Shown: piece after piece, positions 35,581 through 59,628 of the stretch
How positions within the stretch are numbered: the stretch's first letter is position 1
Layout: each line of letters begins with the position of its first letter
NCBI GenBank assembly: GCA_022072025.1
Contig: JAJVIP010000017.1
Coordinates: 53,462-117,461, forward strand
DNA from: Elusimicrobiota bacterium
GTDB taxonomy: Bacteria; Elusimicrobiota; Elusimicrobia; F11
Reading direction: 5' to 3'
DNA length: 64,000 nt
Notes under the pieces: model-generated
What the model was told of the DNA's origin: nothing
Databases searched by the model: none
The model's input: the letters and a program-made list of their open reading frames with translations, nothing else
Program-made: the position numbers and the translations under genes

Positions 35581-35738
35581 TCACACCTCCTTTGAAGTCC
35601 GTTTGAATCTACATCCGATAGCCTATAAATTCCATTGTTTTTGAAGGAACTTTCACCACATCAAATGTGCAAAACGTCACGTCCCAAATATACAAGAATA
35701 TTCTGGAAAGCTATGAAATTCACATATATATTCATTTC

Positions 35739-38297
35739 ATGCGCCAAGTCTCGGAAATTAATCAGTCAACATCTGGAACGACATTAGTCGAACTGATGGT
35801 AGCCGTTGCGATACTTGGCATCGTTAGCATTGGACTCGTGGGTGTATTTGGCAACCTCGGCAAAGCAACACAAACTTCAAAAAACCGAACCCTTGCCGCA
35901 AATCTCGCTCAAGAGAAGATGCAAATCTTAAAAGAGCAAATTTTCGACAAAGTCCTTGTTACCACCTCCACGGCCTATCTGTACGATTTTGACCCTCCCA
36001 TTCCCTATGATACAGGCTATTATCCGCCGGAGCCAATTTTGGAGGGTGGCATACGATTCACGCGCTATACGTTCGTTGAGGTGACAGACGAAAACAGCGG
36101 GGGCTTGGTTTATTTAGGAGCTGTACCCGATTCAGGAATGAAGGCCATTACGGTGACCGCTGTTTGGACCCAGGGAACAGAAATTAAAAAGATCCAAATC
36201 AACAACATTCTTGGGAACATCAATATGAGAATGAACAATGCCATCGTGAGTGGCCAGGTCACCAATTCAGCCACTTCAACTGGGATCCAAGGCGCACTAA
36301 TAACCATGGCAGAAAACGTCGGTTATCAGGATTTCAGCGATGCCAGCGGTAACTATCTCATTAACTTGCTTCCAGGAACCTATACGATGAGCGTGACTGC
36401 AAGTGGCTATTTTCCGTCCTATTTGACGGTTTCCGTTCCCCCTACGTCCCTCACTCAACCTATCTCTTTGGTCGCCATGGGTTCGGGAACAGTACAAGGA
36501 ACAGCCTGGATCAACAACCATTTGGTTATAAGCCAGGTTGTTGGGAGTTCAATCAGTGCAACGGGCTTTAATCAAGAATGGGTGGAGGTTTTCAACCCAA
36601 CGACTTGGACATGGACCGCTTCGGGTGTAGGCCTTAAATTTCAGCGATCAACCGCCCTCGATCTGTCGCCGGTGAATATTTCAATAAATTATGTTTCTCC
36701 TTCCATCGCGCCTGGTGGTTTCTATCTCTTTGCGAACACAACTACGATTACCGCTGCCGGAACCGTACTGAACGCGGACGCCACATGGAATCTGACCGCA
36801 GGAACAAATGACACTGCCTTCAGCCCGCGATTTAACTCATCGGATCCGAACATTATCACGACATACGAAGATACGAATACTTGGGGAAGGGGGAGTGTTC
36901 AACTGTACAACGTTTCCGATGGAACACCTCTTGACACAGTCGGATGGACAGGCGATGGGTCCCAGTCGCCTCCACTTTATGAGGGAAACGCTATAAGTCA
37001 GTTTGAAGGTTTGAACGACAACGAACAATTTTATCGTTACTCTAGTACCAGCGGTTACAACCCGGCTTACGGACCCGCTTATGATTCGGGAGATAACAAT
37101 ACTGACTTGAGTATACTGAGCTCTGTTGGGTGGGTTCCAAAGAACACGGCCAGTGCGACTGTTCCTGTGGTTGCGGGTGTCCCCGCCATCGGTGCGTTTG
37201 TAACGGCGACGGATGGCCTTTCGCAGACGGTGAATGCAAGCTCATTCGGCTCTCCTCCCTGCGCCCAATTTCAGCTGACTTCGGTAGCCACAGGCACCTG
37301 GACTGTGTATATCGCAAGCTCCAGTCTTTATATGGAGATATCGTCAGTTACTGTTTCGCCAAATACAACCACATTGGTACCCAATGCCAACACTTCGCCT
37401 TCATGGCCATCAAGCGGGTACAGCTCAGTTATTTTGTCATCGGTCGCGACTCAGGGATACGTTTCGGGATGGGTGAAAAACGCTTTAGGAGTCGCGATCA
37501 GTCCAGCCATCACCGTCAGCGCGGGTTCTCTCACGGCTCAAGCCAATACTTCGAATGGGACGTATATATTGCCGGTATCCCCAGGTACTTATGACATTAT
37601 GGCGAATGTTCTTAACCCTAATTCTCTTTATGTGTGGCAGGCATCGCAATCCGTTGTGGTTAACCTCGGAGAGGTCACCTCAAATGTTAATTTCAACTTA
37701 ACTCAGGGCGGAAAGGTCAGAGGATTTTGTACGCGCGATGGGACCAATGCTCTACCTGGGATTGTGTTTACGGCCGTTGATGCTGGTGGGGCCACGGTGG
37801 ATCAAGAAGTATCGGGAACCGATGGCATCTATATTTTGCAGAACTTGTCCACCGGCACTTACACCATTTCTCCAAGTTTAGGATCAGGAGAAATCGCGAG
37901 TCCCACCAATACATCTGTGACGGTAATTGCTGGAACCACAGTCAATGCGGCCACATTCACGATTTCCGGCGCGTTCGGCAGCATTGCAGGCAGTGTTACG
38001 GAGTCCGGCCAGGGCATAAAGACGGGCGTTATCATTGTGTGTTCGACAATGACTTTGTCGAGCGGCCCGCCACAGCTCAGCACCAGCACATTAACCTCCG
38101 CCTCCGTTTACGTGACCAACAGTTACGAAGACGGGACCTATATCGTCGACGTTCGTGGAAGCACAACGACGACTTATGTCCTTTACGCTTATTACCCAAA
38201 ATTCAGCGGTTCTGCTCCTGTGATTAGCTCAAGGACCGTGACCAACGTGTCTGTCACGCCGGGTTACCGCACATCAGGAGTTAACTTTGCTTTTTAA
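35739..38297 (+). CDS. Large pilin-like surface protein (about 850 aa): type IV prepilin N-terminus fused to a lamin-tail-like domain and CarbopepD-regulatory-like Ig domains
   Basis: Prepilin cleavage/methylation motif SG|TTLVELMVAVAILGIV with E at +5. LTD-like NQEWVEVFNPT...APGGFYLFAN. Three or more SGQVTN...GxYxxxxxPGTY units. Confidence 0.65.
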   Translation: MRQVSEINQSTSGTTLVELMVAVAILGIVSIGLVGVFGNLGKATQTSKNRTLAANLAQEKMQILKEQIFDKVLVTTSTAYLYDFDPPIPYDTGYYPPEPILEGGIRFTRYTFVEVTDENSGGLVYLGAVPDSGMKAITVTAVWTQGTEIKKIQINNILGNINMRMNNAIVSGQVTNSATSTGIQGALITMAENVGYQDFSDASGNYLINLLPGTYTMSVTASGYFPSYLTVSVPPTSLTQPISLVAMGSGTVQGTAWINNHLVISQVVGSSISATGFNQEWVEVFNPTTWTWTASGVGLKFQRSTALDLSPVNISINYVSPSIAPGGFYLFANTTTITAAGTVLNADATWNLTAGTNDTAFSPRFNSSDPNIITTYEDTNTWGRGSVQLYNVSDGTPLDTVGWTGDGSQSPPLYEGNAISQFEGLNDNEQFYRYSSTSGYNPAYGPAYDSGDNNTDLSILSSVGWVPKNTASATVPVVAGVPAIGAFVTATDGLSQTVNASSFGSPPCAQFQLTSVATGTWTVYIASSSLYMEISSVTVSPNTTTLVPNANTSPSWPSSGYSSVILSSVATQGYVSGWVKNALGVAISPAITVSAGSLTAQANTSNGTYILPVSPGTYDIMANVLNPNSLYVWQASQSVVVNLGEVTSNVNFNLTQGGKVRGFCTRDGTNALPGIVFTAVDAGGATVDQEVSGTDGIYILQNLSTGTYTISPSLGSGEIASPTNTSVTVIAGTTVNAATFTISGAFGSIAGSVTESGQGIKTGVIIVCSTMTLSSGPPQLSTSTLTSASVYVTNSYEDGTYIVDVRGSTTTTYVLYAYYPKFSGSAPVISSRTVTNVSVTPGYRTSGVNFAF

Positions 38298-38790
38298 ATC
38301 CAACAAAGGACAAAAGGGCACAACTCTTATCGAATTGATGATTGTCGTATCGATATTGGGAGTTATCGTCATGCTAGCCCCCAATTTATACAAGCAGGTC
38401 CGGCGTTTCTTTTTTTTGAATAGCGCGAAAGTTGAACTTCAGCGGGAAGCGCGTTCTGTGATGGAGCTGGTTACACGGCGATTGCGGCAAGCGAGTTCGA
38501 CAACGTTGGTGATGGATCAAGCAAGCGGTCAACCCTATTATTCAAGGATTAGGTTTACCGACATCGACTCAAATACGAACGTTTATTATCAGAGTGGGAA
38601 GAATCTCGTAATGAGCGTCAATGGTTCGACAAGAACCCTAACATCCAATTTGCGATATCTCGCTTTTGCATTGCCACGCTCGGATGATATGAACATTGTT
38701 TCAGTGGCTTTGACACTTGAAAAATCAACATACGAAGGCCAAACCAAAGCGCTCCATATGGCCTCGGAAAAGGTTAGGTTAATCAATTAA
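38287..38790 (+). CDS. Prepilin-type minor pilin/pseudopilin
   Basis: KG|TTLIELMIVVSILGVIV N-terminal methylation motif. 167 aa. Overlaps the upstream gene by 11 nt. Confidence 0.65.
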   Translation: MLFKSNKGQKGTTLIELMIVVSILGVIVMLAPNLYKQVRRFFFLNSAKVELQREARSVMELVTRRLRQASSTTLVMDQASGQPYYSRIRFTDIDSNTNVYYQSGKNLVMSVNGSTRTLTSNLRYLAFALPRSDDMNIVSVALTLEKSTYEGQTKALHMASEKVRLIN

Positions 38791-45433: not shown

Positions 45434-45504
45434 TCCTCCTCTCGCCTTCATAAGATCACTTGGCTGTCATCGGTTTGTCGATGATTCCCTGCTATTTTGA
45501 CCCC

Positions 45505-45996
45505 ATGGAAAGACGAAAATACAAACGGTTCTCCGCGACAGCATTTTTAAACCGGCCGGTCACGCTAACTCCCGTTCCGCCTTTTTTTGGGAAACCCATC
45601 AAGGGTAAGTTGATCGATTTGTCTGCTGGAGGACTCTCCATGCTGATTCATCAAATTATTCCTCAGGGGACGCACTTGCAATTGACCCTCGTATTTCCAG
45701 ATCAAACCCGCTTAGAATGCGAAACTCAAGTGAAGCACATGCTTCCCCGGGACCGGAATTATCTACACGGATTTGAATTCCTCAACATCGATCCATCATG
45801 GGTTACGCGAATCAATGATATGTCCTCCCACTTCATTGACTGTGAGCGCCGTATTCAATCGGCTGACATCAATCCCTGCATTGGAAGCCAATGCGCTTTT
45901 TTTAACATGTGCAACAAACAAGAACGAGTCAACCTCCTTGTCAACATCGATGACGAATTGCTGCTGAACTTGGCTGTTTTAGAATTTCACCGTTAA
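45505..45996 (+). CDS. PilZ-domain protein (putative c-di-GMP receptor)
   Basis: RRKYKRF...DLSAGGLS matches the PilZ RxxxR / D-x-S-x-x-G pattern. Confidence 0.55.
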   Translation: MERRKYKRFSATAFLNRPVTLTPVPPFFGKPIKGKLIDLSAGGLSMLIHQIIPQGTHLQLTLVFPDQTRLECETQVKHMLPRDRNYLHGFEFLNIDPSWVTRINDMSSHFIDCERRIQSADINPCIGSQCAFFNMCNKQERVNLLVNIDDELLLNLAVLEFHR

Positions 45997-46071
45997 CACC
46001 CTCTCCGCTGTCAAAGCTCTTGATTATTTCCTATGTTTCACCCGCTTTTTCAATTCATTTTCGGAGGCCAC

Positions 46072-46542
46072 ATGAATAAATACGTTCTGGTCATTTTGTT
46101 GACGTGCGCTGCCAACGCGGGATGCGCCCTTAAACAAGGGAATCCCGCACCCACGACGACCAATACAACCAAGGAATCACCAAAGGAGTCATCATCTGTG
46201 AAAACAATTAAAACGTCATCGGGTCTTCAATACGTCGATATCAAAGAAGGAACTGGGGAAAGTCCCAAAAACGGACAGAGGGTCACAGTCCACTACACCG
46301 GAAAATTAAAAGATGGAACCAAATTTGACAGCTCCGTGGACCGTGGAGAACCCTTCACCTTTATCATCGGTGTAGGACAAGTCATCAAAGGTTGGGACGA
46401 AGGCGTGGCCACCATGAAAGTGGGGGGACAACGAACTCTGATTATTCCATCCCAATTGGGATATGGAGAACGGGGCGCCGGCAATGTTATTCCACCGAAC
46501 GCTGAACTGCATTTTGACGTGGAGCTTCTTGGAATAAAATAA
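46072..46542 (+). CDS. FKBP-type peptidyl-prolyl cis-trans isomerase (lipoprotein)
   Basis: Lipobox NAGC. FKBP core [18 protein letters not shown]...[12 protein letters not shown]. Confidence 0.8.
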
Positions 46543-47342
46543 TGCAACGTGGTGAAGAGGGCTGGTTTGAAACCCATGCTCACCTCAGCGATGCGAAATT
46601 TGATTCGGACCGAGACCAAGTCATTGAGAGAGCATTTTCAGCCGGTATTGGGGCCATTGTTGAAATCGCTGACGGGCCTACCGAATGGCCCAAAGCGAAA
46701 CAACTTGCGGAGCGCTATTCTGGAAAACTATGGTGGGCGGCGGGACTTCATCCGTATTACGCTGACCAATCTGCACCCCCTCTTTGGCGGGAATTAAAAG
46801 GCCTGACCCAACATCCTCAATTTGTGGCCATTGGTGAAATTGGTCTCGACTATGCCAAATGTCCGATCCCACAGGATGTTCAAAAAGAGGCCTTCATCAA
46901 CGGCATCGAACTCGCCTTGCAGACTCATAAACCCATGATCATTCACTGCCGGGAAGCCTATACAGACCTCATGCCCCTCTTGAGATCGTATATTTCAAAT
47001 GCATCGAACCCTGGTGTCATCCATTGCTTTTCTGGCAATCGAGAAAATGCAGAAGAACTCATTCACATGGGTTTTTATCTGGGAGTCGATGGCCCTCTTA
47101 CCTACCCCAGTGCGACCGCCCTGAGAGAAGCTCTTCAAACTATTCCAAACGATAAACTGGTTCTCGAAACCGACAGTCCCTACCTTCCACCTCAAACCCA
47201 CCGCGGCCAAAGAAATGAGCCAAGCCTCTTACCAGAAATCGGAAATCACCTGGCCTGGTTGCGTAACATTTCGCCTAAAGAAATGACCAAGATCACTTAT
47301 CTCAACAGCAAAAAACTCTTCCGCCTAAATCCGCTCGAATAA
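46542..47342 (+). CDS. tatD: TatD-family metal-dependent hydrolase
   Basis: ETHAHL...GEIGLDY...HCREA..D.. TatD motifs. Confidence 0.85.
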   Translation: MQRGEEGWFETHAHLSDAKFDSDRDQVIERAFSAGIGAIVEIADGPTEWPKAKQLAERYSGKLWWAAGLHPYYADQSAPPLWRELKGLTQHPQFVAIGEIGLDYAKCPIPQDVQKEAFINGIELALQTHKPMIIHCREAYTDLMPLLRSYISNASNPGVIHCFSGNRENAEELIHMGFYLGVDGPLTYPSATALREALQTIPNDKLVLETDSPYLPPQTHRGQRNEPSLLPEIGNHLAWLRNISPKEMTKITYLNSKKLFRLNPLE

Positions 47343-47463
47343 TCAACTGGATTGTTTTCCTCTAGGATTCAGATAAAGTACTTGCGCTGAATCTCAAGTC
47401 CACTTAAGTTTGAGACGTATGCACCTCCGTCACAAACCTAACCCGCCGTTCTTGGGAAAAGTG

Positions 47464-49143
47464 ATGGCCAGTTTGGCTGTTATGACCATTTCTTTTTCTC
47501 TTCTCTCCCCATCTCAAGCCGCCCCGGTTAAAAAAAACAAAACATCTGATGCCGCTAAAGTGTCCGAGAAAACAGAAGCAGGTGAGACAAAAGTTCCGGG
47601 GAAAATTGAATCCGTTACCCGCAAAGTCGAGGTCTTTAGAGCAGGATCAAACGGATGGAAAAAAGCCCAAAGCAGCACACCTCTTTCTCCGGCCGACAAA
47701 ATAAAAACCGGCACCCGATCTGTGGCCCGAGTCAAATTGGCTGATGGGACAAAAATTTTACTGCTCCAAAATTCCCAAGCGGAAGTGGAGAAACTTTCCA
47801 GCGTTCAAAAAAGCATCAAACTCCTCAAAGGACGTATTCGCGCCATCGTTTCAAAGATGAAAGGCGGTAACAATTTCCAGATAAACACCCCCGTGGGCGT
47901 GGCCAGTGTTCGCGGGACTGATTTCGAAGTAAGCGTCGAAGGAGATGAAAAATCACCTCAAATGCAGGTCTCGGTGAATGAAGGGCAAGTGGGGGTTTCT
48001 AAATTGGGGGATATGTCCCAGGAAGTGGTGTTGAACGCAGGGGAAAGCATTAAATTTGGGTTTGAAGGAGATATGGGAACCCCCATCCGATCAGGTTCTC
48101 TCCCTGGGGACCGAGACACGGTGAGAACGGAGATTCAAATCGCCAAATCCAAAGAGGCGATGCTGGCCATGGCCGCCGAAGAATCCCGCCAAGCGGATTA
48201 CCAAACCGGAAAATCATTGATGGATGTGGACGGACAACGGGTTCGAGTTGAGGAATACATTATGCGTCCCCGCGCCGATCAATTTAAATTGGTGGTTCTC
48301 AATGAGCGCCCTGAACGATTTGACTACTTCACTTACAAAGGAACCTTCAACACCGACCTCCCTGAAGATCTCTCCATTGCGCTTGGACAAGTGGCTGGAA
48401 AAGTGGGAGCCACCGCTCCTGATTATTATTTGAGGGAATATGAAACCGTCGCCTCCAACACAGTGGATACCGTTTCCGATTCCGCTTCGGGCGGACATTT
48501 GGTGAAGATAGATTTCGATGGAACCAATTACACCCTGACCGATAACGAAGATGCCACCAACACGCGGGTCGTTGAAGCGGCCGCCTTACAGCCTGACGGT
48601 TCGTATAAAATTTACAACCCCATTCGCGATTCATTTTCTCTTGTTTCCGCCGCCAATAAAACAGAGGCCTTAAAAGTTGGGGTGGTCGATGGCGGAAACT
48701 ATCGCAATCTCACGGGGGGCGACACCTACTGGAAAACCCGGTTTAACACGTACGCAATGTTCGTGAACAGCACGGGAAAAACCGCCTATGAAAAGAAAGG
48801 CAGTGTCACCAACACGCTCGCCGTCGATTTGGACGCGAACTTCTCCAATGCCCCCATCACCTCCATAACGGAATTTCCCGATGGAACCAGTCAACTCCAC
48901 AATAAATTGAGCCTCTTCTACGCGGACGGATCAAAATTGGTCTATGACAATTACATCATCGATGACGAAGGGAATATGGTTCCTGCGTCCACTTTCAACG
49001 GGATATCAACAAGCGCTGAATATAAAAACATTTTGGACACTTTAAACTACCAACAAAACATCACTGCCACCGAAATGGGATCTCGGTCCATTCGATTGGT
49101 CATCGATCCGCGAATTGGAACCAAATCGGGGTTGATCCAATAA
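47464..49143 (+). CDS. Secreted FecR-domain protein
   Basis: Signal peptide MASLAVMTISFSLLSPSQA. FecR-like block ADGTKILLL...GVASVRGTDFEVSV. Confidence 0.5.
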   Translation: MASLAVMTISFSLLSPSQAAPVKKNKTSDAAKVSEKTEAGETKVPGKIESVTRKVEVFRAGSNGWKKAQSSTPLSPADKIKTGTRSVARVKLADGTKILLLQNSQAEVEKLSSVQKSIKLLKGRIRAIVSKMKGGNNFQINTPVGVASVRGTDFEVSVEGDEKSPQMQVSVNEGQVGVSKLGDMSQEVVLNAGESIKFGFEGDMGTPIRSGSLPGDRDTVRTEIQIAKSKEAMLAMAAEESRQADYQTGKSLMDVDGQRVRVEEYIMRPRADQFKLVVLNERPERFDYFTYKGTFNTDLPEDLSIALGQVAGKVGATAPDYYLREYETVASNTVDTVSDSASGGHLVKIDFDGTNYTLTDNEDATNTRVVEAAALQPDGSYKIYNPIRDSFSLVSAANKTEALKVGVVDGGNYRNLTGGDTYWKTRFNTYAMFVNSTGKTAYEKKGSVTNTLAVDLDANFSNAPITSITEFPDGTSQLHNKLSLFYADGSKLVYDNYIIDDEGNMVPASTFNGISTSAEYKNILDTLNYQQNITATEMGSRSIRLVIDPRIGTKSGLIQ

Positions 49144-49161
49144 TTTGACAGAGGGGTCTTC

Positions 49162-50376
49162 ATGAAATCTCGTGTTCTCTTGTTTATCTTAGCTTCAATG
49201 CTGAGCCATATATCCATGGCTGGCCCTCAATACATTCCAGTCATCAACGGTCTTTTCACAACGGGACAATGGTATTTTGAAGGCGATAAAAGTGAGTTGG
49301 GTGGAAATGCCGCGATCACGTTCGTTCCTGCCCTCAAGTACTCCGATAAATTCACACTGATTCCTACTGTACAAAGCTATTACCATGGCACACGCACCGC
49401 GGAAGAGTTGGCGGGGGGAAATACTTTATTTCAAGATACCTGGGACAATGGCATCGGAGTCAAAGCTGTCCATTCATTGAATGAAAAATGGAACATCAAG
49501 GAAAATATAGGCGCTCGTTTTAAATGGTTCCGTGAGACCACCGATGAACGATGGACCCATGGACTCTATGATTACCGAATTCTTAATGCGGGCTTGGAAG
49601 CGGAACGAAAGTGGGGGAAAAAAACCAGCATCGCGGCGGGGTATGATATTTCTCTTCTCCAATTTCCCAACTATGTTTCCTTGGAGTCCAGTCAAAGCGA
49701 GGATCGTTCCAGAGAATATGCGGGTGAAAATGTTCTCGATACCCGCAGCCATCTTTTTTCCCTTCGGATCAAGGCCCCGCTTTTTTGGGGACTCTCCACC
49801 TCACTGAACTCATTTTTAACCCCTCGATATTACACCGATCAACATGTGGTTCAATTAACAGGTCTTTTGTCAGCCACAACACGAGATGACCTTTTTTCCA
49901 GCAACACCCTCTCGATCGATCGGGTATTTACCCTCTTTCGAAAAACGAAACTCATCTCGACCGTTATCGTTGGACACAACAGCCTCGATTCCAATCAAAA
50001 CCATTATGACGCCAAGCAAACTTACTTCGCGGCCAACTATTACGACTACGATCAAAATATCGCTGGTCTCCAAATGAACTACGCCTTTGGCAGCAAAATG
50101 CAAAGTCCCATGCTGATCAACTTGGGATACAACTATTCTCATCGCAACTACCGTTCTAGAACCATCCAAGACGCGGATGGAGCCTATTTGAATGAAAAAC
50201 TCTATTTGATCGAACAAGCCATTAATCTTGGTTTTAGTTATCCGCTTGCAAAAAATTTCAGAGTCAAAATGTCCACCACTTTTGCCCAAAGCAAATCCAA
50301 CAACAATTTTGAATCACTCTATCGATACAACTATCACAACTCGGAATATCAATTTGGATTCACTTATGATTATTAA
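49162..50376 (+). CDS. Outer-membrane beta-barrel protein of unknown function
   Basis: Signal peptide. Tyr/Gly-rich alternating strands. C-terminal aromatic ...FGFTYDY. Good RBS GAGGGG. Confidence 0.45.
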   Translation: MKSRVLLFILASMLSHISMAGPQYIPVINGLFTTGQWYFEGDKSELGGNAAITFVPALKYSDKFTLIPTVQSYYHGTRTAEELAGGNTLFQDTWDNGIGVKAVHSLNEKWNIKENIGARFKWFRETTDERWTHGLYDYRILNAGLEAERKWGKKTSIAAGYDISLLQFPNYVSLESSQSEDRSREYAGENVLDTRSHLFSLRIKAPLFWGLSTSLNSFLTPRYYTDQHVVQLTGLLSATTRDDLFSSNTLSIDRVFTLFRKTKLISTVIVGHNSLDSNQNHYDAKQTYFAANYYDYDQNIAGLQMNYAFGSKMQSPMLINLGYNYSHRNYRSRTIQDADGAYLNEKLYLIEQAINLGFSYPLAKNFRVKMSTTFAQSKSNNNFESLYRYNYHNSEYQFGFTYDY

Positions 50377-53300
50377 TAAACGGAGTTTAACCGGTTTAAT
50401 TTTAAATTTATCCCTACTCGCTGTGATGGCTCATGCAACTCCCTCTGACATTGCCGATTTAACAGCCACGACGGGTTCAAACCCCGGCACAGTGACTCTC
50501 AATTGGTCCGCCCCCAACGGCGGAGCCACTCGGTACATCATCAAATACGCTCCAAGTTCCTCTTTAATTTCAACGGAGTCCCAATTTTTATCCGCCTCTC
50601 ACATTGAGGCGCCCCCCATTAATGCACAAGCGCCAACGCCAGCCAGTGGGGGTTCACCCGAAACGCTGACGATATCAGGATTACAGAACGGGGTCGTGTA
50701 TTCATTCTCTATTAAATCGGAGGACAGCAGTTTGATTCGCTCCAATCTCTCCAATGGGGCCACCGCCATGGCCGCTGTTCCTTGCGCTGCGAACGCCAAT
50801 GACGGAAAAGGAAGCGGCGCCATTCTTCCAGCTTCTATCCCCAAAGGACAAGTCGTTCTAACCACCGTCACTTTCACGGTGGACCCGGCCGGAATCGGGA
50901 CCGGAGGAAAAATCTCTCTCCAAGTCCCAGATTTTTTCCCTTTTTTGAGCACCGCCACTTCGAACCAAGAATCCTCTGGATATATTTCTTACACCCACAC
51001 GGGAGGAGCCAACTTGGTTGTTTCCTCTCTCAGTGAACAAGTCATCACATTAAAAGTCGACTCGGGAAGTATGAGCAGCGGTGACCTTGTGAAATTCTTC
51101 ATCTATGCTCACATCTGTTATACCGGGAACAATTCATCCCTTCAATTTCGATTGGCCTCTCAACAAGGAAGTTGCGGAATCCTCAGAGAAATTGCCAGTC
51201 AACCCGTTGTCTCAATTACAAATGGGGGCCCCGCCTTTATTGCGTTTGACCCTTATGAGATTGTGGCGAAGGTCGATGCCATCACCTCTTTCAAAGTCGT
51301 TTCTTTTGATGGATGTGGATATCCAGTCAACTTGTCTCAAACAACAGCCTTTACATTGGAAACCTATCGATATGATTCGAATTCCTCCAATTATATTGTG
51401 GATAGTAACGCATCTCTTTCACTCTCTTCAGATATGTCCTCTTCAAACACCAACATTGGATCTGACATAACCAGCGGGCAATCGGAGAGAACCGCTTACT
51501 ATCGGATCACAACGGCCTCGGCCAAACCCAACTATATTGTATTGACCTACGATGATTTAACTCCACCTCACAACTCCATCTCCTATATCGCTTCAATTGT
51601 TCCACTCACTGTTGGAATTGCGTCAAGTTCAGTCGATAAAGGAACTCTCAATCAAACTCAAAAAACAGTCACCTTTGATCCAGGTAAAAATGAACGTGTT
51701 TATTTCAACTTTTCACTTCCCGAAAATCTTTCCTGGAAAATCATGATATCGAGCAATGGTTTTTCCTCTTTCACCTATATTATTTATGGGAATGGAAAAA
51801 ATGTTCGCACCTCCTGGGATGGGTATGCGGATCCGTCCCCGGGGGAACCTCCGCAAATTGCTCCAGCAGGAACCTATTCCATACGGATACAAATTGGGCC
51901 GGACATAAAAGATGAAACCTGTTCCGTGACTCTCCAATCAGCCGGCATTCAAGGGACGTTGGTAAAAGCGGGGACAGCAACCGCATTGGAAAACGTCGAT
52001 ATCGAATTTTTTGGACCCACGCCCCGCTACACCCGCTCTCGGACGAATGGAACCTTTGAAACGGGAGGGCTCAACTCAGGATCTTATAAGGTTCGGTTCT
52101 TTAAACCTGGTTATATTTTCAAGGAGGTTAATGCGACCGTAACTTCCGGCAACTCAACCAATTTGGGAACCGTTGAACTGACCGAAGCGGCTATTTTAAG
52201 GCTTTATTTCAGCCGTTCAGCTTCTGGCAGTCTGCCGGATATCAATGGATCAGTGCGTGCCTACAACTCTGATTATTCCAAACAATCCTTTGGGTCCGTT
52301 CGGTTTAGATCGGGAAGCACCACTTCAGATGCCGGCGATGATTGGAACTCGACTCCCACTCCTTATACCGACTTATATCTCGAACAAAATGTGGCCTATT
52401 CAGTCCAGGTTGAAATTCCCGGGTTTGCTCCCCTTACCTTCAGTAACACATTAACCTCCGCGGGTGTTACCACCAGCACTCCAACGTTGACGACAAAACC
52501 CACAATAGAGGGGACCGTAACCATTCCAGCGGGGGGGAATGCCCAAGGTCTTTGGATCTCTGTTGAAGCCGCAATTGATGCAAACGGAGATTTAAGTCCG
52601 GACTCTACGGATCCCTCCAACCGTTTATACGGTGGCAGCTATCTTCCACCCAATGAAACCACGGGAATTTACCGTGTTTTCGGATCGACCAATGCCAAAT
52701 ATGTGCTAACGGCATTTGCGCCGGGCTTCGTCCAGAGAAAAATCAATGTCACCGTCAATGGAAGCGATGTCAACAATGCCAATTTCCCCATTTTCAGCGA
52801 GGGGGGAAATATCTCAGGAACAATCACAGTGAATGGAGACTCCACCATTCTTGATGGCGATGACAACGATGGAAAATTTGAAATCCCCATCAATGCCTAC
52901 TCACCTTCAACCGGACGAGGTAGTTTCGCACAGATTGAGCTAAATGAAAATGCGTCCTCCACCAGCGGCGCATACCAATTAAAAGGACTGGAGGATGGAA
53001 TTTATAACGTCTCGGTTTACCAGTCGGGGTTTGGGTTGGTCCCCCCTGGACCCAAAAGCGTAACGGTATCCGGAGGAACCGGGACACTCAATCTCACTTT
53101 GGAACGCTTCAGCGGACAATTCACTGGGACCCTGACCTTGCCGACAGGCCAATCCAATTATGGCACTGTCGAAGTCGATGCCCTGTCGTTTAATCACTTT
53201 GGACAAGGAAGTCTGACTGGCGTCATTTCAGGGAACACCTATACCATCAGCAATCTCGGAACAGATTTTTACACCATTCGCGCTCGCTACCCCACGACAG

Positions 53301-56300
53301 GTTTGGTGGTCACCACCCAAGGGCAAGTTAAAAATGGAAGTACCACAACAAAGAATTTAGATTTATCAGGCGCCACCTATTCGGTCTCCGGCCGCGTCAC
53401 CTCATCAGCCAGCGCGCCGTACACACTTTCCTTTATTGTGAACAGATCCACTCCCACCCAAGCCTATACACCTTCGGGACCAAGCACCCTTAATGCCAAT
53501 CGAATAACGGCTCAAAGACTTCGCAACCGAGACTTTAATGATGGGGGCGGTGGCCCCAGTGGTGGGATTTTCTATGACCCCAAAGAATCATTCATTGGGT
53601 TCTACAACGCCAATGGAGATTACAGCATCAATGGACTCGCGGAGGGTTCGTATCGCCTGACCACAAACGGGGAAATGGATGGCGATCTTTCCAATGGGAA
53701 TGAAATCAGCAAATTGAACAAGGTTTTGTACGTGGGTCAAAATATGACCGGACAAAATTTCAACCTGACCGATGGATACAAAATCAGCGGTACGATTCGC
53801 GTTGCCAGTGGCCAATCAGAATCAGGCCGGAGCTTGAATGTTCAGGCGAGAGATAGTGAAGGGTCAACGGTCGCCCAACAATTTATTTATCTCTCGGGGA
53901 CTTCCGCTGAATTCTCTTTGACCCACATTCCACCAGGACAATATGTGGTAACGGTTTCAGATACCTATCCGAGAAAATATTCCTCTAAGGATCTCCAAGT
54001 TGAAATTATTTCCTCCGATATTTCCAACAAAGAGATCAGCTTGCTTAATTCGGGAATTATCCGAGGAAAATTACAAGTTAAGAAGTCCGGTATTGTTATC
54101 TCGGCCGCCAACTACTCTCAATATCTTTCCGAATCTTTTCGAATTGAAGCGAGAAGCAACCCTTACATTCCAGGTGGTTTTGGCCGAGCTGAAAACCCGA
54201 TCATTGACGCGAATGGATATTTCAATATCGCGGTCAATCCAGGGACTTACGACGTGGTATTGGGATTGGATGGAGGGATATCGGATTCCGATATCGCGCA
54301 AGGAAAAAAAGCCTTCGTTAATGTGACCAAAAGCGCCATTTCAGTCTCAGGAGGAGAAATCAAGGATTTGGGCGTGATTCCCCTTGATGAAGGAATTGAA
54401 ATGACCGGGACGGTGGTGGACGCCTCCGGCACGCCGCTCTCCAATATTCGGGTCGAAGCTGAAAAATCAAACCAATCCGGTCACAACGATGAACTTTTGG
54501 AAACCTTCACTGATTCAAACGGAAAATATGTGATGAGAGGAATCGATTCAACGGGAGCGCGTTATTATCATTTCTTTGCCGCGCCTCGTCCTGATCCATT
54601 TGATCAACGTTTCAGTGGGGATACAACAGCCTCCCGCTATGCGGAATCGATCAAAGGGCCGATAGATACTCAGAGCGTAACCGAAGTCAATTTCACACTT
54701 TCTTTGGCCAATAGCGGGATCACTGCCACCATTACCACCGCCGACTCAGGCGTTCCCCAGGTTCCCTTTGGTGAATCGGGGTCTCTACCTGGGGCCATCG
54801 CGATCCTCAACAAACAACCTGAGATTCCCGTCGATAACCCACTGGGAAATATTGAAGAATTTGTGAGTCCCAGCGGCACCCTCGATGTTAAAGGGCTGGC
54901 AGCGGGTGTTTATGATCTCTACATCCTGGCCAAGGGATACGGCAGCTACTCAAAGAAAAACATTTCAGTTTCGGAAGGGGAAACCGTTGATTTGGGGACC
55001 ATTGTTCTTCCCACGGGATACACCCTTTCAGGAAAATTGACAAAACCCAATGGAGACCCGGTGACCACCTCTGATGTTGAGGACATCATCGCGGCCAGAA
55101 ATAATTTCAACGAAATAGCCATTGCCCAGTTGGATCAAGATGCCTCCAACAACATCATCAAATACTCCATATCGGGCATTCAACCCAACAAGGCCTACTC
55201 GATTATTGGATTTGGTCGATCGAATTCCGTGAGCAATTTGGCCTCCGATATCACGTTAACATCGGACACGGAATTGGATCTTACTTTTGAAGCACCCGCC
55301 CCGGGTGTACTCAACCAAATTGTCAAAAATAACGATGGTAGTTTCACCTTGTTATTCAAATTTGAAGAAACGTTGAGGAATTCGGACATCGACATTTCCG
55401 GAACAATTGGAATTAAAGACGACAATGAAATTCTTTCATTGACATCAGGAAACAGCGCTCTTGGAGAAACCACCATTTCATCGGACAGAAAGGAAGTATC
55501 GACCACCTACACACCTGCTGGAGGAGAAACTTCTTTCACCCTTCGTGTAACCGCCACATTTGTTTCCCAAGACAGCGAAACCGGCGCGAATCAAACCATC
55601 GACACCACCTTCACCTTTTATGCCGGCGTGTCCAAACAAAACAGCGCCACGGTGAGCAATGCCAGCGGAGGCGAGGTGGATTTGTCACAGGCCAACGATT
55701 CCACGAGTTTCACGGCTCCGGCCGGATGGCAAGGAGAAGATGAAGACAGCGCTCCGCAAGTCACCTTGAAGGCCGCAGCAACCCAAAGCGAGTTGGAGAC
55801 CTCGGCCTCCATGGTGGGATCCAAACTGGGCGCGTTGAGGGTGGCTGAGAAATTGGGGCTTCATGCCTACCCAAGTGAGATGGCCAAAGCCATGTCCAAA
55901 CTCAAAAAATTGGACGTTTCACCTCTCAGCTCGTTCTATGACATCTTTTTACCGGCGGGCGTCAGTCACTTTTTCCCTGAAGGAAAAGAAGCGCGACTCT
56001 GTTTGAGTTACGACTCCAGCGCCACTGATCCCTATTCGCTGAACGTTTATTATTACAACTCAACCACCGATGAATATTTATTGGAGAGCGAAAACAAATC
56101 GGTGGATACGGTTAACGAAAAAATTTGCGTCAGCATATCCCACGCGTCCATCTTCACTGTTTTAAATTCAAGCGTTTCCATCATCACCGGAGATGGTTAT
56201 TCCGGAGAGTTATCGATAATTAATTTCCCCAATCCGTTCAATTTAAAATCGAAAACCGTGACCCTTCAAAACCCCGGTTCCGCCAGCGCGTCACAGGTGA

Positions 56301-56548
56301 TCGATGGAACCATGATCAAACTGAGCGTTCCCACCACCATTTCCGGGACGGCTGAAATCAGCATTTTCGATGTCACCGGCGCCCTGGTAAGAACAATAAG
56401 ACACAACGTCACCGGCGGTTCTCATTATTATCTGGAATGGGATGGACTCAACGAGCGAGGGCAAAAGGTCGCCTCCGGCACGTACATTGCGCGCTTAACT
56501 GTTGGTGGCGGGAACGAAAAATTCTTTAAGATGGCGGTGCTCAAGTGA
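50366..56548 (+). CDS. Giant cell-surface protein (about 2060 aa): Fn3, multiple CarbopepD-regulatory-like/Ig-like domains, and a C-terminal T9SS type-A-like sorting domain (Por_Secre_tail-like)
   Basis: Signal peptide LAVMAHA|T. Fn3-like TVTLNWSAPNGGATRYIIKYA. Repeated GxV.D..G.PL....V.. units. C-terminal NFPNPFN...ISIFDVTGALVRTI...WDGLNERGQKVASGTYIARL...KMAVLK. Confidence 0.7.
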   Translation: MIINKRSLTGLILNLSLLAVMAHATPSDIADLTATTGSNPGTVTLNWSAPNGGATRYIIKYAPSSSLISTESQFLSASHIEAPPINAQAPTPASGGSPETLTISGLQNGVVYSFSIKSEDSSLIRSNLSNGATAMAAVPCAANANDGKGSGAILPASIPKGQVVLTTVTFTVDPAGIGTGGKISLQVPDFFPFLSTATSNQESSGYISYTHTGGANLVVSSLSEQVITLKVDSGSMSSGDLVKFFIYAHICYTGNNSSLQFRLASQQGSCGILREIASQPVVSITNGGPAFIAFDPYEIVAKVDAITSFKVVSFDGCGYPVNLSQTTAFTLETYRYDSNSSNYIVDSNASLSLSSDMSSSNTNIGSDITSGQSERTAYYRITTASAKPNYIVLTYDDLTPPHNSISYIASIVPLTVGIASSSVDKGTLNQTQKTVTFDPGKNERVYFNFSLPENLSWKIMISSNGFSSFTYIIYGNGKNVRTSWDGYADPSPGEPPQIAPAGTYSIRIQIGPDIKDETCSVTLQSAGIQGTLVKAGTATALENVDIEFFGPTPRYTRSRTNGTFETGGLNSGSYKVRFFKPGYIFKEVNATVTSGNSTNLGTVELTEAAILRLYFSRSASGSLPDINGSVRAYNSDYSKQSFGSVRFRSGSTTSDAGDDWNSTPTPYTDLYLEQNVAYSVQVEIPGFAPLTFSNTLTSAGVTTSTPTLTTKPTIEGTVTIPAGGNAQGLWISVEAAIDANGDLSPDSTDPSNRLYGGSYLPPNETTGIYRVFGSTNAKYVLTAFAPGFVQRKINVTVNGSDVNNANFPIFSEGGNISGTITVNGDSTILDGDDNDGKFEIPINAYSPSTGRGSFAQIELNENASSTSGAYQLKGLEDGIYNVSVYQSGFGLVPPGPKSVTVSGGTGTLNLTLERFSGQFTGTLTLPTGQSNYGTVEVDALSFNHFGQGSLTGVISGNTYTISNLGTDFYTIRARYPTTGLVVTTQGQVKNGSTTTKNLDLSGATYSVSGRVTSSASAPYTLSFIVNRSTPTQAYTPSGPSTLNANRITAQRLRNRDFNDGGGGPSGGIFYDPKESFIGFYNANGDYSINGLAEGSYRLTTNGEMDGDLSNGNEISKLNKVLYVGQNMTGQNFNLTDGYKISGTIRVASGQSESGRSLNVQARDSEGSTVAQQFIYLSGTSAEFSLTHIPPGQYVVTVSDTYPRKYSSKDLQVEIISSDISNKEISLLNSGIIRGKLQVKKSGIVISAANYSQYLSESFRIEARSNPYIPGGFGRAENPIIDANGYFNIAVNPGTYDVVLGLDGGISDSDIAQGKKAFVNVTKSAISVSGGEIKDLGVIPLDEGIEMTGTVVDASGTPLSNIRVEAEKSNQSGHNDELLETFTDSNGKYVMRGIDSTGARYYHFFAAPRPDPFDQRFSGDTTASRYAESIKGPIDTQSVTEVNFTLSLANSGITATITTADSGVPQVPFGESGSLPGAIAILNKQPEIPVDNPLGNIEEFVSPSGTLDVKGLAAGVYDLYILAKGYGSYSKKNISVSEGETVDLGTIVLPTGYTLSGKLTKPNGDPVTTSDVEDIIAARNNFNEIAIAQLDQDASNNIIKYSISGIQPNKAYSIIGFGRSNSVSNLASDITLTSDTELDLTFEAPAPGVLNQIVKNNDGSFTLLFKFEETLRNSDIDISGTIGIKDDNEILSLTSGNSALGETTISSDRKEVSTTYTPAGGETSFTLRVTATFVSQDSETGANQTIDTTFTFYAGVSKQNSATVSNASGGEVDLSQANDSTSFTAPAGWQGEDEDSAPQVTLKAAATQSELETSASMVGSKLGALRVAEKLGLHAYPSEMAKAMSKLKKLDVSPLSSFYDIFLPAGVSHFFPEGKEARLCLSYDSSATDPYSLNVYYYNSTTDEYLLESENKSVDTVNEKICVSISHASIFTVLNSSVSIITGDGYSGELSIINFPNPFNLKSKTVTLQNPGSASASQVIDGTMIKLSVPTTISGTAEISIFDVTGALVRTIRHNVTGGSHYYLEWDGLNERGQKVASGTYIARLTVGGGNEKFFKMAVLK

Positions 56549-57459
56549 AGCGCTCCACATGGGGATTGATCCTGCTGCTTTTTTCTGCCCCATGTTTTGC
56601 GGTGGACAACAACGCGGGAACCAGTGGAGCGGCCTTCTTGAAAATCGGAGCGGGAGCCCGACCCACCGCCATGGGAGACGCCTTCGTGGCCATTGCCGAT
56701 GACGTGAACGCCCTTTATTTCAATCCAGGCGGACTGGCCCTCCAAGAGCAAAAAGAATTCACTGCGCTGCATACCCAATATCTTCAAGGACTCAATTACA
56801 ATTTTGCGGCGCTAAGCATCCCCACTAAAAATGGAGGTTGGGGAATTTCAGGTGCCACTCTTCAGACTGATGATATTGACCGTCGAGGCTCGGATGAATC
56901 GCTTACCGGATCTTTTCAAAATCAGGACGCTGGTTATGGACTCACTTATGCCCACAAAATAGGGGAACACAGTGGATGGGGGGGAACTCTCCGTTGGGTC
57001 AGGTCTGAAATTGACAATGCCTCTGCCTCTTCTTGGTCGGCCGACCTTGGAATCTTTAAACGATTTGAAAACAATCCATTAACCTTGGGGCTGGCCGTCA
57101 AACATATGGGGCAAAAATTAAAGTTCATAGAAGAAAGCGATCCGCTTCCGCTGACTATTGACGGTGGGGTGGGATATCGCCTTTTCAATGATAGATTCAC
57201 CATGGCCACCAATCTCAAAAAATCCCGCGATCGTAACTTAGAATTCGGACTGGGCTTTGAATGGCAAGACGCGGTCGCTGACAAGGTCCGTTATGCCACG
57301 CGCGTGGGTTTTAATGGAGCCAACACCGACGCTGAGGGGGCCAATGGAATCACATTGGGAGCAGGATTGGGCTATCGACAAATGGATTTTGACTTTGCCT
57401 GGGTCCCCTTTGGAGATCTTGGAAACACCTTCCGATACGCCGCCCACTTCAAGTTTTAA
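56545..57459 (+). CDS. FadL/TodX-like outer-membrane beta-barrel protein (possible PorV/PorQ-type partner)
   Basis: GTGA start/stop overlap with the giant gene. Signal peptide. The N-terminal GAGARPTAMGDAFVAIADDVNALYFNPGGLA matches the FadL-family GRAxSGEGAIADDAxNVSRNPA pattern. C-terminal F. Confidence 0.5.
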   Translation: MKRSTWGLILLLFSAPCFAVDNNAGTSGAAFLKIGAGARPTAMGDAFVAIADDVNALYFNPGGLALQEQKEFTALHTQYLQGLNYNFAALSIPTKNGGWGISGATLQTDDIDRRGSDESLTGSFQNQDAGYGLTYAHKIGEHSGWGGTLRWVRSEIDNASASSWSADLGIFKRFENNPLTLGLAVKHMGQKLKFIEESDPLPLTIDGGVGYRLFNDRFTMATNLKKSRDRNLEFGLGFEWQDAVADKVRYATRVGFNGANTDAEGANGITLGAGLGYRQMDFDFAWVPFGDLGNTFRYAAHFKF

Positions 57460-57491
57460 GGCCAAGTTGAAGTGGTATACTCCGGAGCCTT

Positions 57492-59522
57492 ATGGCCCTG
57501 GGGAAACCGATAAAAATATCCATTGCTCTTCCTTTGTTGATGCTCTTTGGTTTCACTGTTTGGGCCTCCTCCCGGCGCCCAGCACCCAAGCCATCTGATC
57601 ATAAAGAACAGCAAACTCCCAAATTAAGCTCGGAGGAGTCCGCTTCCGCTTCCACCTCTATGCAGGGGCCTCCTTCCGCCTACACCTCTCCTGTGATGCC
57701 CACGGGCGGATGGCCGGAATTGGCGATTTTTATTGCGGTCCACCCGGAAGGAAGCGCGGGAGATATCCTCGAATTTCTTGAAAACCAACCCAACCTCAAC
57801 CTCACCCTTATTTTTCCGCCTTCTTATTTCAACAACGAAACAAACCGCGATTTGTTAGGCGAATTTTCTCTTCGCCAAAGTTCAAAAACCCTAGAGGTGG
57901 CCCTTACTTTAGAGAACGAACCCAATTTGCCCCTATTGGACAATTTGAGTAACGCTGGAAACACCGTTCAAAAATGGGGTTTCAACTATGCCTGGCCTGA
58001 AGACGTGGCGGCGCAAATCGCCCGGGGAAGCGCTCGATATCAAAAAAGATGGGGGCATCTGCCTTCCGGTCTAACCCCACCCTATCTCAGTCTCACCGAA
58101 TCCGTGGTGAATACGGTAAAGAAATTTAGATTGAATTGGGTTTTGGGACGTCCCCAGGATCGGTGGGGAATTCGATTTTATGGAGGGACGACGCTGGTGA
58201 TTCCGCCGAAACCTCCCACCATTGATGAATTGACGCTGGGTGGAAAAGTATGGGCAGAAAAAATGGCGGATTGGACCTTGGGTTATCCATTTGTGTTCAT
58301 TGACACCACACAACTCGAAGATCCCAAAGCGGAAATTTATTACCTAGAAGAGGTCGTAAAAAAAATCACCCCCAAAAAACCTCAGCGGTTGTTCTTAACT
58401 GCAGAAACCTGGACTCAATCTCTGGGAGATGCTTTTGATCTTCCAAAAGATATCACCCCCTTTGAAAATGATTTTTCTTCTTGGGTCACATCCTCCCAAC
58501 AAAGACGCGCGTGGGCGGCTATTGCTGATGCGAGATTGGCCATCGAAACCTATCAAAAATCAGGACGAGCCAATCTGCAGAGACTGGACGCGGCCATAGA
58601 AGAAATGGCCAACGCTCAATCAGGCGAATTTTTACTCCGTTTGGGATCGATCGCTCCTCCCACAGGGCCTCTTTCAGACCGTCCGGTTGATGAACGAAAT
58701 TTCCTGGCAACACTGGGCAATGTTTACCGTCTTTGTGAAACGGCTGTTCCATCCAATCTCAACACCTGGTTTGCCACTCGATCCGCCATAAAGTCAACTC
58801 CCAAATCGGATTCAATGGAGGGCCCTTTTTTCATTGAAGGCCCCAACAGCCTCACCTGGAATGATTCCAAAAACGACGACGATGGAAATGGCAGTTACAC
58901 CTATCCCGTGGGCCCCTATCCCAAAGGAATGTTTGACTTAAAAGAATTAACTCTTTCTTGGAACGATGAAGAAATTAATATCACGGCCAGTGTTCAAGAA
59001 CCTTTTCTCGGAAAACCCCTTTCCGTTCTTCCGGCCATCGATCTCTATATCGATGTCAATCGCCTCCCAAACGCCGGCAGCACCAATGGACTGGGAGGTC
59101 GGGGAAAAACAAATACCGCTCGAGAGGCGGCCTGGGAATATGCCGTGGCGTTTTCGCCTCGCTCCGCGACGATCTATCAGTCCATCCCAGGAGAGTCGCC
59201 ACGAACGCTGGGTAAAAAATCGGTCGACGCCAGCGGGAAAAGTTTTTCAACCACTTTCCCGCGATCCCTTTTAAGAGGAGACCCAAGACAATGGAGATTC
59301 TCAGCTGGGCTCATGGGCATTGAGAACAGTCAAAAACAAGAAACACCGACTCCTGTTTCAATTGTCTACAACGCCACAGAAAAAAATTTTGGGGGCGCTC
59401 AAATCAAACAATCGGCGCCTTATATCGACATCCTCTCACCCTCAATTGAGGATCAAACAGATCGAATGAAGAGTCATTTTGAGGGGGGGCCCCTCAGCCT
59501 GCCGTTCGTTGAGGCTCAGTAG
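57492..59522 (+). CDS. Secreted protein with a glucodextranase-like C-terminal domain (likely a polysaccharide deacetylase/GH57-type enzyme)
   Basis: The C-terminal DDDGNGSYTYPVGPYPKGMFDLKELTL...IDLYIDVN resembles the glucodextranase C-terminal binding module. The N-terminal catalytic part is not identified. Confidence 0.4.
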   Translation: MALGKPIKISIALPLLMLFGFTVWASSRRPAPKPSDHKEQQTPKLSSEESASASTSMQGPPSAYTSPVMPTGGWPELAIFIAVHPEGSAGDILEFLENQPNLNLTLIFPPSYFNNETNRDLLGEFSLRQSSKTLEVALTLENEPNLPLLDNLSNAGNTVQKWGFNYAWPEDVAAQIARGSARYQKRWGHLPSGLTPPYLSLTESVVNTVKKFRLNWVLGRPQDRWGIRFYGGTTLVIPPKPPTIDELTLGGKVWAEKMADWTLGYPFVFIDTTQLEDPKAEIYYLEEVVKKITPKKPQRLFLTAETWTQSLGDAFDLPKDITPFENDFSSWVTSSQQRRAWAAIADARLAIETYQKSGRANLQRLDAAIEEMANAQSGEFLLRLGSIAPPTGPLSDRPVDERNFLATLGNVYRLCETAVPSNLNTWFATRSAIKSTPKSDSMEGPFFIEGPNSLTWNDSKNDDDGNGSYTYPVGPYPKGMFDLKELTLSWNDEEINITASVQEPFLGKPLSVLPAIDLYIDVNRLPNAGSTNGLGGRGKTNTAREAAWEYAVAFSPRSATIYQSIPGESPRTLGKKSVDASGKSFSTTFPRSLLRGDPRQWRFSAGLMGIENSQKQETPTPVSIVYNATEKNFGGAQIKQSAPYIDILSPSIEDQTDRMKSHFEGGPLSLPFVEAQ

Positions 59523-59555: not shown

Positions 59556-59628
59556 TGGAGCTGATCGGGATCGAACCGACGACCTCCTGCATGCCATGCA
59601 GGCGCTCTCCCAGCTGAGCTACAGCCCC
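59556..59628 (-). tRNA. tRNA-Ala (anticodon GGC), 73 nt, with the G3:U70 identity pair. No encoded CCA.
   Basis: Manual fold of the reverse complement GGGGCUGUAGCUCAGCUGGGAGAGCGCCUGCAUGGCAUGCAGGAGGUCGUCGGUUCGAUCCCGAUCAGCUCCA gives canonical D, anticodon (loop AUGGCAU) and T arms. Confidence 0.85.

Follow-up and report, generated by a model that had tools for sequence, protein, structure and literature searches.

In the system of type IX secretion (T9SS), PorU and PorZ retain their C-terminal domains (CTDs), and PorV and PorQ anchor them at the membrane (PMC12365241). CTD proteins of type B have cognate PorP-like barrels as anchors, as SprB has SprF (PMC9143113). Surveys place T9SS genes only in the Bacteroidetes or in the phyla of the Fibrobacteres-Chlorobi-Bacteroidetes (FCB) group (PMC4793230, PMC11285876). 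We analysed a 64-kb stretch of an Elusimicrobia metagenome-assembled genome (contig JAJVIP010000017.1; hereafter the window) in which a giant secreted protein with a CTD of the type-A family is encoded directly upstream of a barrel of the PorV/PorQ family. These two genes, g3 and g4, follow two further genes for envelope proteins, g1 and g2. With moderate confidence, we propose that g1 to g4 form a coupled envelope operon specific to Elusimicrobiota, in which g3 and g4 would constitute a surface anchor of one cargo and one barrel, and g1 and g2 an accessory pair for export or assembly.

The layout of the locus was established from a listing of the open reading frames (ORFs) of the window and their translations. 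Five tightly packed genes lie on the plus strand between tatD (46542-47342, upstream of g1) and a tRNA-Ala(GGC) gene on the minus strand (59556-59628, downstream of g5), with overlaps or with gaps of at most 33 nt, as the original prediction had described. The first, g1 (47419-49143, 574 aa; maximal ORF from an alternative TTG at 47410), is separated by 18 nt from g2 (49162-50376, 404 aa). The end of g2 overlaps the start of g3 (50366-56548, 2060 aa) by 11 nt (50366-50376, plus strand, TATGAxTAyTAA). The CTD of g3 occupies the last ~119 aa (56189-56545, plus strand). The GTG start of g4 (56545-57459, 304 aa) overlaps the stop of the giant gene in the 4-nt sequence GTGA (56545-56548, plus strand), also as predicted. 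A gap of 32 nt separates g4 from g5 (57492-59522, 676 aa), which ends 33 nt before the tRNA gene. On a public contig of identical sequence, the five genes are called with these lengths too (574, 404, 2060, 304 and 676 aa), and all five products are labelled 'hypothetical protein' at NCBI (MCG3205486-90). The length of 2106 aa first given for the giant protein had to be corrected: this version is the maximal ORF from a TTG at 50228 and would overlap g2 by 149 nt. We place the start at the ATG at 50366 because a signal peptide follows it, the public gene call agrees and the start is conserved in relatives. A Sec signal peptide is present at the N-terminus of all five proteins. A scan of the locus for promoters and terminators gave scores at or below chance, and no operon boundary was found.

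Related loci were collected in a genome scan with a g2 alignment and their gene content was scored by tblastn and blastp. The scan yielded 25 loci, of which 24 are distinct; almost all bear the label Elusimicrobia. Sixteen related loci are long enough to be judged, and 15 of them carry g1 to g4 linked, at 25-68% identity. The order g1-g2-g3-g4 was found in eleven (L002, L004, L006, L007, L011, L013, L014, L015, L019, L022 and L023). Three loci (L016, L021 and L025) have the order g1-giant gene-g4-g2, and in one (L024) the giant gene precedes g1, g2 and g4. The contig ends inside the unit in the eight remaining loci, and g3 and g4 are not nearby in L026, the most distant locus (29% identity). 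Since the linkage of g1 to g4 recurs in 15 of 16 loci, the arrangement is not due to chance, and this comparison of gene order bears out, for these four genes, the predicted co-conservation in relatives. Two of the loci, L004 and L005, are both ends of a 184.8-kb 'Candidatus Obscuribacterium magneticum' contig (JAJAPZ010000001.1) and carry identical inverted copies of g1-g4, probably an assembly artefact; the giant gene is split there into two ORFs of 706 and 1364 aa.

The junctions between the genes are conserved as well. In 14 of 15 complete loci the next gene after the giant one is a g4 orthologue; in L024, g1 and g2 lie between the two. The junction of g3 and g4 reads (A/G)TGA in 14 of 15 cases, window included, and is formed by a final Lys or Arg codon and the TGA stop; in at least seven junctions the overlapped start runs directly into a signal peptide. 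At the junction of g2 and g3, the ATG of g3 falls inside the final Tyr-Asp/Glu codons of g2, an arrangement shared by the window and 13 of 13 related loci examined. Where the frame after this ATG was inspected, in the window and six related loci, it encodes a signal peptide. Overlaps of the form ATGA, GTGA or TAATG join g1 and g2 in about 11 loci. Such a pattern of overlaps suggests that the products are co-translated, possibly in fixed ratios.

The product of g4 had been described as a FadL-family barrel with a likeness to PorP. Its FadL-like character stands and can be made more precise, as the protein scored 155.5 bits on NF033709, the model of the PorV/PorQ family (cutoff 90). It remained below the cutoffs of the equivalog models for PorQ (NF033711, 91.8 bits, cutoff 220), PorV (NF033710, 66 bits, cutoff 250) and PorV2 (56.4 bits, cutoff 325), and in g4 and its orthologues the PorQ score was always above the PorV score. 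Five other Elusimicrobia barrels encoded next to CTD genes scored 117-210 bits on NF033709. The only match of g4 among PDB sequences was F. johnsoniae PorV (E 3e-4). The likeness to PorP had to be abandoned: the PorP/SprF model TIGR03519 was not reported for g4 at E <= 0.1, and the orthologue of L024 reached 17.1 bits (cutoff 90.55). By these scores, g4 is a member of the PorV/PorQ family, but is an orthologue of neither PorV nor PorQ and does not belong to PorP/SprF. BamG was also considered and rejected, one g4 orthologue scoring 17.5 bits on a model with a cutoff of 250.

The domains attributed to the giant protein, Fn3 and CarbopepD-reg modules followed by a T9SS type-A-like domain, were recovered. 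Scanned alone, the CTD reached 27.9 bits on TIGR04183 (cutoff 23), and among NCBIfam models the PorU CTD came out on top (30.4 bits), with the PorZ CTD at 26.4 bits. Orthologous CTDs scanned in the same way gave 28.2 bits (L016) and 33.3 bits (L024) on TIGR04183; the divergent CTD of L019 gave no match at E <= 0.1. Within full-length g3, the domain scored 16.9 bits on TIGR04183 and 23.1 bits on PF18962 (Por_Secre_tail), below the cutoff of 27. The type-B model TIGR04131 gave no match at E <= 0.1, either on g3 or on the CTD alone. A profile of the CTD from 16 orthologues was then compared with the PDB. The best match was the PorZ CTD (5m11, residues 693-758, E 1.8e-6), in an alignment that extends to the C-terminus of both sequences, and the Ig domain of FlgD (~3e-5) and the PorU CTD (2e-3) ranked lower. 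The profile also matched 'T9SS type A sorting domain' proteins of Latescibacteria, Salinibacter and Eisenbacteria (~1e-12). A match to generic FlgD-Ig models only, which had been named as an observation that would tell against the prediction, was therefore not what we obtained. The CTD contains the motifs FPNPF, IxIFxVxGxxVRT, WDGxNxxGxxVASGxY and a terminal KMAVLK. It terminates the protein in all 16 orthologues, where the positions P15, P17, G65, W85, S97, G98, Y100, K115 and A117 are invariant and the conserved ending is K-[ML]-A-V-[LI]-K, and it is the best-conserved stretch of g3 (62-73% identity, against 36-55% overall). These comparisons place the CTD in the type-A sorting-domain family, not in type B, and its closest resemblance is to the CTDs of PorZ and PorU, which stay uncleaved.

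Upstream of the CTD, Pfam identified fn3, CarboxypepD_reg (106.9 bits, in four stretches) and fn3_3 domains in g3, and Ser, Gly and Thr together make up 32% of its residues. BLAST found no internal repeats, so that the beta-sandwich domains must be too diverged from one another. Full-length g3 had no match among PDB sequences, and no two-partner secretion (TPS) domain was matched with Pfam or NCBIfam. Its orthologues measure 1449-2974 aa in 15 related loci. Conservation in the loci examined extends over most of g3, which is why we see in it a probable core protein of surface coat or adhesion and not an accessory adhesin that evolves fast.

In order to follow the association of CTDs with barrels, we searched 549 kb of Elusimicrobia DNA with hidden Markov models (HMMs) built for the CTD and for g4. 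All matches fell within shared clusters, namely the giant modules at 16 distinct loci and two distinct pairs with a small cargo. Every complete cluster consisted of one CTD protein and one PorV/Q-like barrel, the CTD gene usually lying directly upstream, and, contig ends aside, neither a CTD gene nor a barrel gene without partner turned up in the 549 kb, a sample which is biased towards the g1-g4 locus and is not a genome-wide census. The small cargoes (180-194 aa; L027:10001-11579, L028, L029:10001-11496 and L030) come from other Elusimicrobia and are unrelated to g3. Their C-termini matched the PorZ CTD (E ~1e-13) and one of them passed TIGR04183. Directly after each lies the gene of a PorV/PorQ-family barrel of 318-327 aa (162-186 bits), the two genes overlapping by 4 nt in L029 and L030. 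Near these pairs, homologues of g1 or g2 were not called. The N-termini of the small cargoes weakly match the 'CPR-type pilus protein PamT' model (E ~1e-5), and a collagen-like Gly-X-Y repeat protein (L027:12043-13101; Lcl/Scl adhesin models) is encoded directly downstream of one pair.

The other two proteins, a secreted FecR-domain protein and a second outer-membrane barrel, are, as had been stated, part of no described T9SS cassette. The periplasmic FecR-domain protein first read from the sequence of g1 was borne out by a FecR domain (PF04773, 65.8 bits in Pfam) and a signal peptide; the FecR equivalog model scored 39 bits, below its cutoff of 385. As g1 contains no Cys, it is not a lipoprotein. 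In its AlphaFold2 (AF2) model (predicted local distance difference test, pLDDT, 87.8), residues 1-56 are disordered and correspond to the signal peptide and a linker of ~35 aa. They are followed by the FecR beta-sandwich (~aa 60-215) and, after a single long helix (232-256), by a C-terminal domain of ~310 aa (261-574) that is conserved and rich in beta structure; no structural match was found for this domain. The signal peptide is cleavable and nothing else lies upstream of the FecR domain; a cytoplasmic anti-sigma domain and a membrane anchor were not found in g1. Homologues of g1 number at least 150, and every named one comes from Elusimicrobia.

The beta-barrel outer-membrane protein announced for g2 was recovered in its AF2 model, a barrel of 16 long strands (pLDDT 88.1; predicted template modelling score, pTM, 0.80) without POTRA or plug domain. 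The first strand begins at residue 23, which leaves no room for POTRA domains, and the protein ends with the motif F-x-Y-D/E-Y. No Pfam or NCBIfam family was above threshold and no Omp85 or ShlB family match was obtained in either database. We considered g2 as a diverged PorV/FadL relative and as a TpsB protein and rejected both, the former by an hhalign probability of 1.7% between g2 and g4, the latter by the missing POTRA domain. In a comparison of folds, the sequence identity of g2 with TpsB barrels was 8% and ordinary porins scored nearly as high. We regard g2 as an outer-membrane barrel of a new family. A word-indexed search returned 51 homologues, all named ones from Elusimicrobia, and the family counts 459 cluster representatives among 1.84 billion proteins. 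Some g2-family barrels (P0307, P0309, P0310, P0296 and P0300) carry N-terminal extensions of 150-550 aa made of repeated 'W..G..P..GD.V.FG...DC.WDLD' modules, or, in P0296, of an Fn3 domain. For one extended barrel of this type (L032:3570-6410), the gene still overlaps a FecR gene before it by 4 nt, and a large gene comes after it. The order FecR gene-g2 is kept in the distant locus L035. A single ORF, P0435 (L031:141-2520), fuses a g1-like protein (FecR and C-terminal domain) to a g2-like barrel through a linker of ~70 aa; it is either a hint of physical association between g1 and g2 or an assembly artefact.

The fifth gene does not share this conservation. That g5 encodes a secreted protein with a glucodextranase-like C-terminal module was verified (Glucodextran_C, PF09985, 61.7 bits; signal peptide), but its membership in the unit was not. 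Its N-terminal region is weakly GH57-like (19 bits, below the cutoff of 21.2), no GH15 catalytic domain was matched, so that g5 does not qualify as a GH15 glucodextranase, and nothing better than E 0.36 was found among PDB sequences. Among the related loci, g5 homologues occur only in L006, L011 and L015, usually with another gene between g4 and g5, which is a PilZ gene in L006 and L011. There is no g5 after g4 in L002, the closest relative, nor in L004, L007, L013, L014, L022 and L023. This restricted distribution reduces the conserved unit to g1-g4; the five-gene unit first proposed is rejected by synteny, and by the same comparison g5 is a lineage-specific neighbour.

The flanks of the unit also vary by lineage, with tatD and an FKBP gene or others upstream, and PilZ, type I dehydroquinase or other genes downstream. 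The FKBP-type peptidyl-prolyl isomerase encoded just upstream of tatD (46033-46542) stays below the cutoff of the NCBIfam BamJ model (80.7 bits, cutoff 100), and its N-terminus suggests a lipoprotein-like signal peptide. We did not retain FKBP and tatD as members of the module, as upstream conservation is restricted to closer relatives, and took them as ordinary synteny. The window has a PilZ-domain gene (45460-45996) upstream of the operon. A PilZ paralogue directly follows g4 in four related loci (L004:9736-10341, L006:17718-18440, L007:18059-18577 and L011:17132-17629), and the window has no gene at that place. Outside the operon, the 64 kb contain only housekeeping, signalling and pilin-like genes. 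One of them (35667-38790) encodes an 876-aa protein with a prepilin-type N-terminal methylation motif and CarboxypepD_reg and SpaA-like domains; this giant pseudopilin-like surface protein shares its type of beta-sandwich domain with g3, and its gene overlaps the next one, which encodes a second N_methyl protein of 167 aa. Another (8843-10996) encodes a 717-aa protein in which a seven-transmembrane region and an adenylate/guanylate cyclase domain are combined with a weak GAF match below threshold. The GC content falls to 0.41 between positions 34001 and 36000, compared with ~0.48 elsewhere, in a region that holds two small minus-strand ORFs without family match (34150-34761 and 34975-35580).

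Taken together, linkage, pairing and coupling support the predicted functional unit around the giant CTD protein and the FadL-like barrel that directly follows it. We propose that the products of g1 to g4, which all carry signal peptides, would be exported by Sec. The g4 barrel would then bind the CTD of g3 one-to-one and hold g3 on the outer face of the outer membrane; homology, and analogy with PorV and PorQ, together with the strict gene pairing and the stop/start coupling, lead us to this assignment. The periplasmic g1 and the barrel g2 would form a second coupled pair spanning periplasm and outer membrane. Most likely they help g3 to cross the outer membrane or to assemble there. This is the weakest step of the scheme and is suggested by linkage: the pair remains tied to the giant gene in the rearranged gene orders and is joined to it by a start/stop overlap.

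Several observations weigh against this scheme. Pairs of CTD protein and barrel exist without g1 and g2 (L027-L030), some distant relatives have g1 and g2 without g3 and g4 (L035), and L033 has g2 alone. Since each pair occurs alone, the two halves can work apart, and g1-g2 may serve a function unrelated to g3. In addition, the structural match of g2 to TpsB barrels barely exceeds its match to ordinary porins, the fusion of g1 and g2 is one sequence on a 2.5-kb contig, and the pairing figure comes from the biased 549-kb sample. The locus could accordingly be read as two independent neighbouring units, g3-g4 as cargo and anchor, and g1-g2 as an unrelated periplasmic protein and porin-like channel serving, for example, solute uptake or envelope maintenance, without a role in the biogenesis of g3. 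A g2 that resembles general 16-strand porins almost as well as TpsB barrels would fit such a reading. We nevertheless regard it as unlikely, as the linkage of the four genes survives three gene orders and divergence to ~30% identity, whereas the genes outside the four change between lineages, and as the window and all 13 related loci examined have the start codon of g3 within the final codons of g2. A further point against our scheme is that g3 may use a shared translocon, the scan for T9SS genes having been confined to the window. If a canonical T9SS were encoded elsewhere in the genome, g3 would be an ordinary, if unusually organized, type-A substrate and g4 a paralogue of PorV/PorQ. The passing of TIGR04183 by the CTD, the match of its profile to annotated type-A sorting domain proteins and the passing of the PorV/PorQ family model by g4 are what such a system would produce. 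On the other hand, g4 lies under both the PorV and the PorQ equivalog cutoffs, each cargo has its own barrel with stop/start coupling instead of a single shared shuttle, and T9SS genes are reported only from the Bacteroidetes and FCB phyla cited above, while a literature search for Elusimicrobia with T9SS, PorV or FlgD returned nothing relevant. None of the core components SprA/Sov, PorK/L/M/N, PorU, PorT and PorW was found in the 64-kb window, the only part covered, and the 549 kb contained no CTD proteins beyond the paired ones; neither absence is decisive. On balance, an ordinary T9SS cargo seems to us rather improbable.

The opposite possibility is that Elusimicrobiota lack the T9SS translocon, motor and sortase altogether, and that g1-g4 are a previously undescribed, self-sufficient machine for export and anchoring. 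In that case g1 and the POTRA-less g2 would move the Sec-exported g3, of ~2000 aa, across the outer membrane, and the PorQ-like g4 would capture its CTD. We hold this bolder version to be doubtful; if it were true, the pair of CTD and FadL-like barrel would be older and more widespread than T9SS, which would later have recruited it. The CTD might also be an ordinary FlgD-type Ig domain without sorting role, and g4 a FadL-type channel for lipids or hydrophobic compounds. Full-length g3 indeed scored slightly higher on FlgD_ig (25.7 bits) than on Por_Secre_tail (23.1 bits), both under cutoff, and FlgD structures were matched by the CTD profile. However, the domain is always terminal, keeps its K-[ML]-A-V-[LI]-K end and exceeds the rest of g3 in conservation, its best PDB match is the PorZ CTD up to the C-terminus of both, and it is always clustered with a PorV/Q-like barrel, in giant and small cargoes alike, so that a mere FlgD-type domain is very improbable. 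We give even less credence to cell-surface signalling of the FecR type or TonB-dependent uptake, in which g1 would be an anti-sigma-like sensor and g2 an outer-membrane transducer. The FecR domain itself would suit this role, but the architecture of both proteins led us to reject it: g1 has a cleavable signal peptide and neither anti-sigma domain nor membrane anchor, and g2 differs from a TonB-dependent transducer, which has 22 strands, in its 16 strands and in the lack of any plug or signalling domain. No extracytoplasmic function (ECF) sigma factor adjoins the operon, either in the window or in the related loci.

A coupled operon with a one-cargo, one-barrel anchor would be new in three respects, by its phylum, which is outside the FCB group, by the strict pairing of cargo and barrel genes for type-A CTDs, and by the joining of such a pair with two undescribed families in one conserved operon. 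For phyla with type-A CTD proteins and no known Por/T9SS genes (PMC3909097), the coupled barrel offers a concrete minimal candidate partner that may handle them. As to the origins of T9SS, PorZ-PorQ and PorU-PorV may descend from simple cargo-anchor pairs of the g3-g4 kind. The g2 barrel and the C-terminal domain of g1 represent undescribed families of envelope proteins locked to a giant surface protein, which is itself a candidate for a main component of the cell surface in a phylum that is little known and for the most part uncultured. Should g1, g2 and g4 be enough for the display of a CTD-tagged protein, a compact surface-display system could be made of them.

Among known systems, the closest to g3-g4 are PorZ-PorQ and PorU-PorV of the Porphyromonas gingivalis T9SS attachment complex, which likewise combine a CTD of the type-A class with a barrel of the PorV/PorQ family (PMC12365241). 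The Elusimicrobia pair differs from them in a host phylum outside the FCB group, in a cargo that is a repeat protein of 2000-3000 aa and not a protein for lipopolysaccharide delivery or a sortase, and in the adjacency and stop/start coupling of the two genes. Moreover, g4 reaches neither equivalog cutoff, no PorK/N ring, Sov or PorU is known beside g3-g4 in the 64-kb window, and the conserved partners g1 and g2 have no counterpart in T9SS. The BamG-BamH pair of the Bacteroidota beta-barrel assembly machinery also uses a FadL-like barrel as pedestal for a surface-exposed protein (PMC12611786), but BamH is a lipoprotein held through its N-terminal tail and not through a CTD. Two-partner secretion systems (TpsA/TpsB; CdiA/CdiB, FHA/FhaC) share with g2-g3 an operon of a very large surface protein and a 16-strand barrel; g2, however, lacks POTRA domains, its barrel starting straight after the signal peptide, and g3 lacks the TPS domain. 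The orphan TIGR04183 domains of Poribacteria belong to type-A CTD proteins for which no T9SS structural genes are known and whose pathway is stated to be unknown (PMC3909097); each CTD gene of the Elusimicrobia comes with a PorV/Q-like barrel gene, and none is reported for Poribacteria. The analogy with sprB/sprF that the original prediction had drawn remains the best functional comparison, since in both cases the gene of a large adhesin is followed by that of its own small anchor barrel, one per cargo (PMC9143113). It does not extend to the protein families, as the CTD of g3 is of type A and that of SprB of type B, and as g4 is a PorV/PorQ protein and SprF a PorP-like one, nor to the route of export, which for SprB requires the full T9SS.

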